Positions 59,901-64,000 of a stretch of DNA of 64,000 nt are shown here, one piece after another. The stretch is from assembly GCF_013167455.1 (NCBI RefSeq), contig NZ_CP038328.1; one strand, written 5' to 3'. The first letter of the stretch is position 1; each line of letters starts with the position of its first letter. A program made the position numbers. This DNA comes from Escherichia coli O157:H7. Its GTDB lineage: Bacteria; Pseudomonadota; Gammaproteobacteria; Enterobacterales; Enterobacteriaceae.

Positions 59901-62900
59901 AAAATAATATTTTAGCTAATATTATTTTCGTCGACTTCCAGCAACAAGGTGCAAGAGGGCTGACGAACGCGCCTGATGAAGATCCGGACGATTTAAGCAC
60001 GGGATATTACGGTTCAGCGTACCGGTCACCGGAGAACTGGACGACGGCACTGCGAAGCAGTCATTTCAGCTCAGCAGCCCGTCGGGGGATTATTTCTGAC
60101 AGGTTTGTAGAAGCAATTTTGCAGTTTTGGCGCGAAAGGTGAGCGTTCATTAATTTGATTTATTCGCATCCATCAGCGCTTTTAACTCCTCCGGCGTGCG
60201 GCACTATAACGACTTCCACAACAAGGAGCCATTTTCTTATACCACTTTCAGTGACCATCCGCTTATGCCACCACCCTCTACGCAACTGTTTGCAGAGCAC
60301 CTTCCCACCGAGTGGATACAGCACTTCCTGACGCTTTCTGCTCATGCGACCGTTCGTCGTCTTAACCTGAGCGTGGATGGCGAAGCGGGGATGAACCTGC
60401 TGGCGCCCGCAGCGCTGTCACCCAGGCGCGTCAGCGCGTGGGGGCCGCCCCGGTGGAATGGCTCTTCCGCCAGACCACACAGACATGGGGCGCGGAACGT
60501 TACCTGAAGGATGACTGGCACGGCCTGCAACTTTTTGCCATTGATGGCGCACAGTTCAGGACACCTGATGAACCCGAGCTGCGTGAATATTATGGCTCTG
60601 CCAACACATCCACTGAGCGGCAGAGCGCCTACCCCGTCATGCGTCTGGTGGCGTTAATGAATCTGGGAATCACATTCTACTGAATGCCATGACCGCGCCT
60701 ACCGGCGGAGCGATACGGCGTGAGGCAACAAAAGCGGCGTCAGAGATCAGCTTTAAGTTCGCGTTCCAGTTTATCGTGACAGAAATGATAGTGCTGGGAA
60801 ACACGGCGTCACCGGGGACTATCCCGAAACGACTGGAGCATCTGCGGGGGCTCTGGAAGTGGTGTTCATAACAAAACGCCCCCGACCATCAAGGGCGAGG
60901 GCGGTTAAGATATCAAAAACCCGTTATCCTGTGAAACACAGTGCCGCCCCGCTTAAGTGAACGGCATTGTGTTTCTGAGGGACCTTAATTTTCCCTGATT
61001 CTCTGACGTTCCTTACCATTGATATTTCCTTCATTCCTCACCAGAGAAATAAAAAATCACTATACTCATCAAAATATGAGATTACCTTTATTCAGGTGAT
61101 CACCTTACTATTTTTTACGGAAAATAAATTATGAATAACAAGAAATCACTGACAAACCACCTGTAAAATGTCAATCATTTTAGTTCAATTGCCTTTGTCA
61201 TGATTATCTTTTTATCGTCCTGACGATACTATTAACAATTGCAATTTTTATACCCCTCCTGAACAAATAGAAAAGAACTAATATATTCGTTTATAATTCT
61301 GGTAATCCTGGCATCATACGTTTAAAACTTAAGATATTTATTTTATCATCATCATGGTTCCAGAGACTATTGGTCAGCTGGAAATGCCAGCCTTTTCGTG
61401 CCAGCTATATTTGTCCAGTGTGTCACCCCATCCAAAAATCATCCACATCCTGACGTTACGTTAGATATAGAGAAAACAGGTTGTACTGTGCAATATGCAA
61501 ACCGCATAAGCGAATATAATTTCTAAGTTGATATTGTCTGGCTGTTGGGAGCTAAGCAATATAAATATCGCCAGTTGCCAGAACGGTTATATAGACCAGG
61601 AGCGTTTCGGCTCCTGGCCTGTTTTGGACATATTATCAGTCAGCCACTAATAGCGGACTAGGGACACCAGATGATGAAACAAACAGCCCTTTTACGGCAC
61701 GGGTTGCAGCCACATGCAGTAACGCGCGCTCATTAAATAATGCATCACGCTGTTCAACGGGATCATCGGATGCTAATGCTTTTATTTCCGGCACAACGCC
61801 TTCGTTAATCCCCACCAGGAACACATACTGGAACTCAAGCCCTTTAATACGGTGCATCGTTGCAACCCGCACGCCAGGGCGTGCATCGCTGTCACCGCTA
61901 TCATTGCCTAAATTAAATGTCTCAATTCCGGCGTCATTCAGTGCTGATGCGTAGCGGTCACAAGCATGTTTAGTACGCGCAGTAATGCAGATATCCTGAG
62001 AACGAACCTGATTCGCCAGCAATGCCTGAATTTGCTTGACGAGCGTTGCAGCCTCTTCTTTGAAATCTGCCGCATGCGTAATCATGGGCTTTTCCCCGTG
62101 CAGTAATGACAAATAATCATTACTGGTATCCGCTTCGCCATCGAGGTTATCAACCTTCACACCAGTTAACAGCCCAACAGCAAATTGACGCGTCTCTTCT
62201 GTGGTCCGATAGTTAATCTTCAATTTTTTACTGCGACGACCACGGACGTTAATACCACACTGACCAAGAACGACCTTATTGCGATAAATACGCTGATGCC
62301 CATCCCCGACAATAAACAGATCGTTGGGCGACTCGGGAACCAGGCTGCGAATAAGAGTAAATGCCGGGGCACCGATATCTTGAGCTTCATCGACCACAAT
62401 ACTGCTATAAGGTAGTTGGACCTGCTTTTCTTTAAACAGAACAATAGCCTCATGCATGGCATCGCCCATTTCGCGCAGTTTGGCACGCGCCATTTGTGCT
62501 CTGAATTCTTCAAAGACTGGCCAGATTTTCGCCCGTTGAATACGGGATAACGCTGTACCACGTCCAACCCGGCTGACTTTGAGGTATTCCTCCCGGGTGT
62601 AAACCGCATTTGGCTGGACAACGCGTTGCCACTCTTCAGCATAGAAATTATCAGGTAGCCCCAGTTCGGCAGGTGCCTGCTGCAAGGCATAGTTCCAGCA
62701 TTTGCGTCGCCCTTCATCGCTGTCGTATACCACGCGGAAATCATAACCGTGGCGTTTTAGTTGGTCGCTCATCCAGGCATCAATGTTAACGACGTCAATA
62801 CGCGCCATCTCTTCTCGCGTACACAACCGCTGGAGATTAGCGCGAATATCTGCCGCCAGGTTACGCGTAAAGGTCGTGAAAAGTACTTTCTTACCGGGTT

Positions 62901-64000
62901 TATCTGCCAGACGCTGAGATAACCACCGCGCACGGTGCATCGCAACAACCGTTTTCCCTGTACCTGCACCGCCCAGTACTCGTACCGGACCATTAGCGGG
63001 CGACTCCACCAATTTTCGCTGGCTCGGATGCAGAAATACACGCCATTTTTCTAAAGGCGCATTAAGCATCTGCAACAGCTCCTGTTCATTTTCAACGACA
63101 TGGAAGCGACGTTTACTTCGTTCAATCGCCTCCATAAAGTCGTTGGTATCAACAGGCTCATCACGATGATCGTTAAACTCTTCCAGCACTTCCTGGTAAT
63201 CCAGCCCTTCTGCCAGCCAGTGCAGAGGTTCCCAGGCTTCTGCTGGCATTATGCTTTCAAGTTGATTAAGCCCGGCTTCATCGGTAAGCGCCATCACCTG
63301 ATCAATAAAGACAGGCGGCACACCCAGAGCCAGAATCTGTTCCGCGCTGTAAGCAGCGAAGAGTTTCGGTTTATCAACCACTGTTTCCGCTGCCGGTTTG
63401 ATATAGCTAATATCAATGACCTGAATCGCGCCGGTAACCGGGTGAATTGAACAATCATGCCGCCGCGCCCAGTCATATGCTTCGTCGTGTTTATCCACCC
63501 ACATCAGCATATACAGGGCACCCTGTTCAGGTTTCAGAACAATGCCGCGATAAGTTTGATCGATTCGCACCGAATGGACATTTTTACTGCGCGCATCGTG
63601 GATCTTTTCATAGTTAAGTCCATTACTGGTCGGGTCCTGACGGAATTTGGAGATGAATTCCTGCACCTTTTTTTGCTGTGCCTTTGGGATCCGCGCGAAT
63701 GCGCCCAGAAAACCATCAGAAAGTGCCACCTTGGGCGTTTGCACCGTCATTTGTCACCTCCGGACAGATGTTGCAATGTATTTTCGTCAATTGGCCCGAA
63801 TGCAACGTGCCAACCCCTGGTTGTGAATAATGGAATAAATTCTTGATTATCAATAATCAATGCCCATTTTTGTGATGGCCAGGCGAGATCGGCTTCCGCA
63901 ATAATTTCACCTTCATCATTTTGCAATTCGTAGCCGAGAGTCGGCGCAGAGAGAGAATGAGACTGAAGCAACGCGATCTCTTCAGCGCTTAATAAGCCAA

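Follow-up and report, generated by a model that had tools for sequence, protein, structure and literature searches.

The stretch of DNA analysed here, referred to below as the window, comprises 64,000 nucleotides (nt) of contig NZ_CP038328.1 from Escherichia coli O157:H7 (assembly GCF_013167455.1). The minus strand at its far end carries armD together with the 3′ end of armC; these two genes close the anti-phage operon armABCD (ARMADA type II) on O-island 172 (OI-172). The open reading frame (ORF) call on the window for armD gave a product of 704 amino acids (aa) with an ATG start, which is 100% identical to WP_000218177.1 of O157:H7, a protein listed as 'UvrD-helicase domain-containing protein'. 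Many E. coli O157:H7 chromosomes contain the window stretch 61500-64000 at 100% identity. Since 533 of 5426 complete E. coli genomes (~10%) carry this stretch, and a profile of the N-terminal domain of ArmD finds 2662 cluster representatives at E ≤ 0.001, the feature is no chance product.

Most of ArmD is a helicase. Pfam matched UvrD-helicase at residues 241-490 and UvrD_C at residues 509-693, while a Pfam scan of residues 1-240 returned no match. The motifs read from the sequence include a Walker A motif (GAGTGKT, starting at residue 261, with lysine K266), a Walker B motif (DEAQD, starting at residue 454, with aspartate D454), motif III (GDGHQ, from residue 482), motif IV (YR, residues 514-515), motif V (VATMHRIKGLEF, from residue 629) and motif VI (VAATRA, from residue 680). 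ArmD belongs to superfamily 1A (SF1A), as it has both RecA folds (1A and 2A) along with motifs Q, I, Ia, II, III, IV, V and VI. A preliminary description of this DNA, made from the sequence alone, had already proposed a 704-aa helicase with all superfamily 1 (SF1) motifs, and the ORF call, Pfam and the motif reading agree with it. The structural model of full-length ArmD (pLDDT, the predicted local distance difference test, 91.2; predicted template modelling score, pTM, 0.88) had UvrD, PcrA and Rep as its top-ranking Foldseek matches, with E-values down to 4e-24. As modelled, the core is that of a generic, compact SF1A helicase. Its NCBIfam scores were far under the equivalog cut-offs for UvrD, Rep, PcrA and HelD, so that ArmD is none of these four proteins.

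The armD start codon (ATG, 63750-63748) overlaps the armC stop codon (TGA, 63749-63747) by four nucleotides (ATGA), and the junction reads GGAGGTGACAAATGACG on the minus strand. The overlap with an upstream gene running off the window had been described correctly. The armC frame is open up to base 64000, the end of the window (83 aa translated), and this piece matches, at 100% identity, the 3′ end of a gene that is 6342 nt long in O157:H7 genomes. As the preliminary description had suggested, the sequence was followed past position 64000; it was taken from O157:H7 genomes, among them strain PV15-279, where the island measures 49.5 kb. There, 223 nt past the gene for a 2104-aa helicase, begins a tight run of genes encoding proteins of 952, 1644, 2113 and 704 aa, which correspond to ArmA, ArmB, ArmC and ArmD. 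The three junctions are, in this order, a 2-nt gap, a 1-nt overlap and the 4-nt overlap. According to PADLOC, the 952-aa Snf2 helicase is DrmD/BrxHII-like (E-value of 1.4e-99), the 1644-aa PglX-like methyltransferase is type IIG/DrmMI-like (E-value of 3.7e-286) and the protein of 2113 aa is distantly related to DruE (E-value of 5e-104). The last of these also has an MZB/DUF1998 zinc domain (MZB E-value of 5.6e-13). The gene cut by the window edge thus encodes a giant YprA-family helicase. The coupled upstream gene of the previously proposed two-gene module is real, but the unit has four genes, two more than that proposal allowed for.

This gene content is that of ARMADA type II: a YprA-family helicase with DEAD/Helicase_C and DUF1998/MZB domains (ArmC) is preceded by a BrxHII/DrmD-like Snf2 protein and a PglX-like methyltransferase, in the order A-B-C-D. 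ARMADA systems were defined in a 2025 preprint (Bell et al., bioRxiv 10.1101/2025.09.15.676423), and a second 2025 preprint identified armABCD as z5899-z5902 on O-island 172 of strain EDL933 (Li et al., bioRxiv 10.1101/2025.09.22.677730). Because the residues mutated by Bell et al., K266 and D454, have exactly the numbers of the lysine in Walker A and the aspartate in Walker B here, the window protein is their ArmD. The locus, lineage, gene order, residue numbering, domain description and neighbours (Druantia III as well as Zorya II) are the same as in the published type II systems (E. coli NCTC 12900, EDL933 z5902/z5901 and ATCC 8739), with no detectable difference. The idea that this UvrD-type helicase is part of an anti-phage system is therefore borne out by the published ARMADA type II, whereas the view of the gene as uncharacterised is not, since armD was studied in both preprints. 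The system, its four genes and the annotation of a RelE-like domain in ArmD were all published in 2025, and no new entity is described here. Our additions are candidate catalytic residues, an unplaced linker domain and examples of contexts outside ARMADA.

The two preprints describe what the system does. Cloned from O157:H7 strain NCTC 12900, armABCD blocked 13 of 80 phages, and defence was lost upon deletion of any single arm gene (Bell et al.). The ArmD K266A substitution abolished defence and D454N reduced it partially; the ATPase motifs of ArmA, ArmC and ArmD and the NPPW motif of ArmB were needed. Propidium iodide and resazurin assays pointed to a direct, non-abortive mechanism, and ArmC was described as carrying an active Vsr-type nuclease domain followed by inactivated endonuclease/exonuclease/phosphatase (EEP) and Vsr domains (Bell et al.). 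Li et al. report ARMADA II as the dominant resistance determinant, acting in synergy with Druantia III. Because of this dominance in the phage resistance of enterohaemorrhagic E. coli (EHEC) O157:H7, seen in both preprints, the system has a bearing on phage therapy against EHEC O157:H7.

Features of the armC-armD region. Positions are those of the window; residue numbers refer to ArmD.
Feature	Position	Strand	Basis or remark
armD coding sequence (704 aa and stop)	61636..63750	-	fourth gene of ARMADA type II, z5902 in EDL933; ORF call
RelE/YoeB/YafQ-like domain (βααβ4 with αββ extension), residues 1-115	63406..63750	-	
Conserved helical linker domain (LGVP motif), residues ~120-232	63055..63393	-	fold family unplaced
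UvrD/PcrA/Rep-type SF1A helicase core, residues 233-704	61639..63054	-	Pfam, PADLOC GajB, Foldseek
Codon of Walker A lysine K266	62953..62955	-	computed position; K266A mutant of Bell et al. without defence
armC 3′ end, last 83 codons (254 bases), cut by window edge	63747..64000	-	2113-aa YprA/DruE-like helicase-nuclease
ATGA, overlap of armC stop and armD start	63747..63750	-	read from sequence; same 4-nt overlap in distant loci L004, L007 and L010
GGAGG, Shine-Dalgarno sequence of armD inside armC, 6 nt ahead of ATG	63757..63761	-	read from sequence
GC-rich 8-bp hairpin, 19 nt past armD stop	61596..61617	-	candidate operon terminator; weak minus-strand T-tract; scan scored + strand

The best PADLOC model for ArmD was GajB (E-value of 2.4e-36). 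Together with its structural neighbours UvrD, PcrA and Rep and its position next to nanS, which is that of yjhR in E. coli K-12, this could mean that ArmD is the intact form of yjhR and either a GajB of the Gabija type or a repair helicase of the ordinary kind. Like GajB, ArmD is a UvrD-like SF1 helicase and an accessory motor in a nuclease-based defence. Unlike GajB, it is extended at the N-terminus by ~230 residues, which make up the RelE-like and linker domains, and has no GajA partner. Gabija membership was rejected, as the 49.5-kb island contains no GajA or other OLD-family ATPase-TOPRIM nuclease gene adjacent to armD or elsewhere. GajB structures were absent from the top 50 Foldseek matches of full-length ArmD, so 'GajB-like' is a label from defence-specific profile libraries. 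The low NCBIfam scores mentioned above, and a location on a mobile island carried by just ~10% of E. coli genomes, argue against a repair helicase. The K-12 counterpart that the preliminary description had named, the pseudogene yjhR of MG1655 (b4308, 338 aa; L003:9016-10032), does occupy the equivalent position beside nanS. Still, a BLASTP comparison with ArmD gave no alignment (E-value of 1.2), and yjhR matches positions 812-1135 of the 1136-position model of Mokosh type II MkoC (E-value of 3.8e-139). Orthology of yjhR and ArmD was therefore rejected; judged by this match to the C-terminal 324 positions of MkoC, yjhR is what is left in the leuX-nanS hotspot of K-12 of another defence gene. 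With the GajA, BLASTP and MkoC results refuting it, we give this explanation next to no chance.

DISARM class 1 and Druantia share features with ARMADA II, with ArmA resembling DrmD, ArmB resembling DrmMI/PglX, and ArmC resembling a fusion of DrmA and DrmB, or DruE. Unlike ARMADA II, they have neither a UvrD-type fourth component nor a RelE-like domain. As a further difference, the nuclease domains of ArmC are of the Vsr type and not of the phospholipase D (PLD) type (Bell et al.).

The N-terminal region of ArmD was suggested to have a RelE/ParE-like fold, based on the motifs HSVRIDQTYRGIVL and ALYMLMWVDKHDEAY, both of which are present in the protein. This fold is borne out by structural comparison, but not by sequence profiles. 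With 45 homologues as input, AlphaFold2 gave a model of residues 1-249 (pLDDT 89.5, pTM 0.85) that has the topology β1-α1-α2-β2-β3-β4-β5, followed by a helix, two strands and a helical region. All 50 listed matches in a Foldseek search of this model against the PDB were chains that belong to the RelE/ParE fold or match it, including YoeB, RelE, RelK, YafQ, HigB, ParE, Cami1 and an insecticidal toxin, and the best-ranked ones had target template modelling scores (TM-scores) of about 0.7-0.79. The region thus has the βααβ4 fold of the RelE/ParE superfamily, superposable on solved members. Sequence searches with Pfam, PDB sequences and profiles yielded no significant match to RelE, YoeB, YafQ, HigB or ParE, so that only the fold searches reached the RelE superfamily. 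Residues 1-249 have abundant homologues, a few of which bear the COG label 'RelE of RelBE toxin-antitoxin system' from the Joint Genome Institute (JGI). A first homologue search with the 249-aa N-terminus gave mostly fragments, and full-length homologues were obtained from a search of cluster representatives.

YoeB, RelE, YafQ and HigB are ribosome-dependent mRNA endonucleases. The ArmD domain differs from them in being fused to a helicase, in carrying an extra αββ extension (residues 88-113), in its lack of sequence-profile membership and in having no antitoxin gene; its ribonuclease (RNase) activity is a candidate one. No antitoxin gene was found beside armD, where the upstream neighbour is the gene for the 2113-aa ArmC and downstream lie the hairpin and insertion sequence (IS) remnants. 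A classical type II toxin-antitoxin module, which would have a small antitoxin gene adjacent, was therefore rejected. Another protein for comparison is Cami1, a ribosome-dependent RelE-like RNase activated by cyclic tetra-adenylate (cA4) and accessory to type III CRISPR, which like ArmD joins a RelE-like domain to a sensor module in an immune system. Cami1 senses cyclic oligoadenylate through a CARF domain, whereas the partner in ArmD is an ATP-driven helicase in a DNA-targeting system.

Conservation in the RelE-like domain was computed on 47 full-length homologues with 34-49% identity. Residues R62, R68, H88, D89 and W94 are invariant and E48 is retained in 46 of the 47, a level that matches that of the helicase residues K266, D454 and E455. 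Y92 is retained in only 33. Catalysis by YoeB involves E46, R65, H83 and Y84. Both hhalign runs against YoeB, which were not significant (E-values of 0.1-0.19), placed E48 on E46, R62 on R59 and R68 on R65, and H88 directly follows strand β5 in the AlphaFold2 model, like H83 in YoeB. From this we infer a candidate YoeB-type active site in the ArmD domain. The same residues could instead serve binding, with a non-enzymatic RelE-like domain that docks on or senses the ribosome, RNA, an Arm protein or a phage protein, much as ParE-type members bind protein. We regard this as a possible but doubtful alternative: RNase members (YafQ, RelE, YoeB, HigB and Cami1) outrank ParE in both fold searches, and an invariant Glu/Arg/Arg/His set in the catalytic register of YoeB looks like an active site.

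A strictly conserved RelE/YoeB-like domain in a non-abortive, DNA-targeting system presents a puzzle. The mechanism we propose builds on the published findings that the four arm genes jointly protect from many phages without killing the host, and that ATP binding by ArmD (K266) is needed. ArmA is a DrmD/BrxHII-like Snf2 ATPase, and ArmB, a PglX/type IIG-like N6-adenine DNA methyltransferase, would mark self DNA. ArmC, whose YprA-family DEAD/DUF1998 helicase part is joined to nuclease domains of the Vsr type at the C-terminus, would together with ArmA find, translocate on and cut unmodified phage DNA. ArmD, a UvrD-type SF1A helicase with two N-terminal additions (the RelE/YoeB-like domain and the helical linker domain), would be made stoichiometrically with ArmC through translational coupling at the overlapping stop and start codons. 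It probably works as a second motor at DNA ends or forks, in complex with ArmC. Because the YoeB-like set E48, R62, R68 and H88 is selected as strictly as the ATPase motifs, its RelE-like domain would most likely be an active RNase with local action, directed at phage transcripts or at RNA located on the targeted DNA, and not a cell-killing toxin. We consider it highly probable that this explanation, with armD and armC as part of ARMADA II, is right as a whole. The specific claim that the RelE-like domain is an RNase with E48, R62, R68 and H88 as its active site, and that this activity is required for defence, is put forward tentatively. If true, a methylation-guided, DNA-cutting restriction system would gain a second arm on RNA or translation.

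Several observations weigh against this explanation. Pfam gives no RelE-family match for E. coli ArmD, ParE_like appears only below threshold (in 12 of 45 homologues at E ≤ 0.1, with a best value of 1.6e-3) and hmmsearch with the N-terminal profile against PDB sequences found no RelE match. Neither hhalign run, against E. coli YoeB alone or against a 25-sequence YoeB alignment, was significant; the latter alignment was too uniform to help, as the listed matches are all at least 81% identical. The correspondence of E48, R62, R68 and H88 with YoeB E46, R59, R65 and H83 is drawn from the alignment register and the order of secondary structure elements. We also infer the complex of ArmC and ArmD, the part played by methylation and the DNA that is targeted. 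RelE-type toxins do not usually show a non-abortive phenotype. Deletion of armD had a somewhat milder effect than deletion of armA, armB or armC (Li et al.), and the available text of Bell et al. and Li et al. reports no mutant of the RelE-like domain.

In an alternative view, ArmD would be an abortive-infection effector, in which the helicase senses phage DNA and frees the RelE-like toxin, leading to translation shutdown and cell death or arrest. Toxin-helicase fusions and Cami1, the RelE-like effector of type III CRISPR, act in this manner, and Cami1 is among the fold matches of the ArmD N-terminal domain. Some lysis was seen at the highest multiplicity of infection (MOI), yet membranes stayed intact, metabolism was not shut down and cultures grew at high MOI (Bell et al.). 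The locus lacks an antitoxin gene, and no growth effect of the armD deletion is reported (Li et al.). We therefore consider an abortive role unlikely, and retain the local action of a candidate RNase as the preferred explanation.

We inspected eight genomic contexts of ArmD homologues; the distant loci are single metagenome contigs and serve as leads only. An ArmD homologue directly follows an ArmC-like Helicase_C+MZB gene at L004, at L005/L006 and at one JGI locus, which has an ArmB-like gene upstream. At L010 (L010:2827-10751), a gene for an ArmC-like protein of 1934 aa shares a 4-nt overlap with an ArmD-like gene, and no Snf2 or methyltransferase gene was found in the ~2.8 kb upstream. This may be a methyltransferase-less ArmCD pair. 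It would fit a scenario, close to that of the preliminary description, in which the two genes for ArmC and ArmD provide defence autonomously and ArmA and ArmB add a layer of modification and regulation, as would RelE-UvrD homologues without ArmC at L008, L009 and L011. In E. coli, however, deletion of armA or armB abolishes defence (Bell et al.; Li et al.), which already implies no protection by armCD alone; the four genes of type II come in a strict order (Bell et al.), and L010 is a single 12-kb metagenome contig. An autonomous ArmCD module is thus improbable, and the four-gene system remains our explanation for the E. coli locus.

Other homologues occur outside an ARMADA context. Two independent contigs (L008:3669-8290 and L009:247-5301) carry RelE-UvrD homologues that are 34-37% identical to ArmD and retain E48, R62, R68, H88 and the Walker motifs. 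In both, the next gene encodes a protein of ~800-860 aa with a P-loop ATPase and an S-adenosylmethionine (SAM)-methyltransferase domain. No ArmC-like gene was found upstream at L008, and the L009 contig starts 246 nt ahead of the gene. The two pairs may represent a distinct two-gene system. At L011 (L011:6996-9101), a lone RelE-UvrD homologue lies between electron-transfer flavoprotein genes and a convergent ParB_N/nSTAND ATPase pair, with no ARMADA genes in the contig flanks (7 kb upstream and 9.5 kb downstream). Long ArmD variants with a C-terminal extension of ~650 aa were found as P0261 (1391 aa; L007:623-4798) and P0249 (1415 aa). The extension of P0261 has a Pfam match to Sigma70_r4 and, by eye, a helix-hairpin-helix resembling the C-terminal domain of the RNA polymerase alpha subunit (alpha-CTD), which hints at a link to the transcription machinery. 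If the RelE-UvrD fusion is indeed a portable module outside ARMADA, with a partner at L008/L009, alone at L011 and with a Sigma70_r4 tail at L007, further defence types would exist beyond the published description of ARMADA. That both hold, an active RNase needed for defence and a portable module, is conceivable, although we would not expect it.

Several metagenome homologues of ArmD are broken up into two or three ORFs in a row (for example, 393 + 195 + 75 aa; L004:10001-12097 and L005:5473-7739). These could be pseudogenes or assembly frameshifts, and such fragments dominated the first homologue search.

The arm locus sits on the leuX island OI-172 and adjoins Druantia III and Zorya II. In PV15-279, the island begins with a tRNA-Leu gene and an integrase gene, followed by zorE-zorB2-zorA2 (Zorya II), the gene for a 1119-aa STY4851/ECs_5259 protein and that for the 2104-aa helicase, which PADLOC identified as DruH and DruE3, respectively (both E = 0). 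At its end, ArmC has ~60 residues with 40% identity (E-value of 8e-9) to the C-terminal region of ZorE, a protein of the island's Zorya II system, as determined by comparing L002:45900-46514 (window 63747-64000, minus strand) with L002:18799-19902. The ZorE models of PADLOC and NCBIfam also match the C-terminal piece of ArmC. By sequence similarity, the co-located ARMADA II and Zorya II have a small C-terminal domain in common.

Downstream of armD, the T-tract of the hairpin is on the plus side, and the hairpin may terminate transcription from the nanS side, besides or instead of that of the arm operon. Between nanS and armD, the island border is marked by transposase remnants with frameshifts, one of them an IS4-family fragment and the other a 'transposase domain-containing protein' (window ~60200-60960). 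The same spot in PV15-279 also holds IS1203 and ISEc8, and nanS is truncated there, while it is intact in the window.

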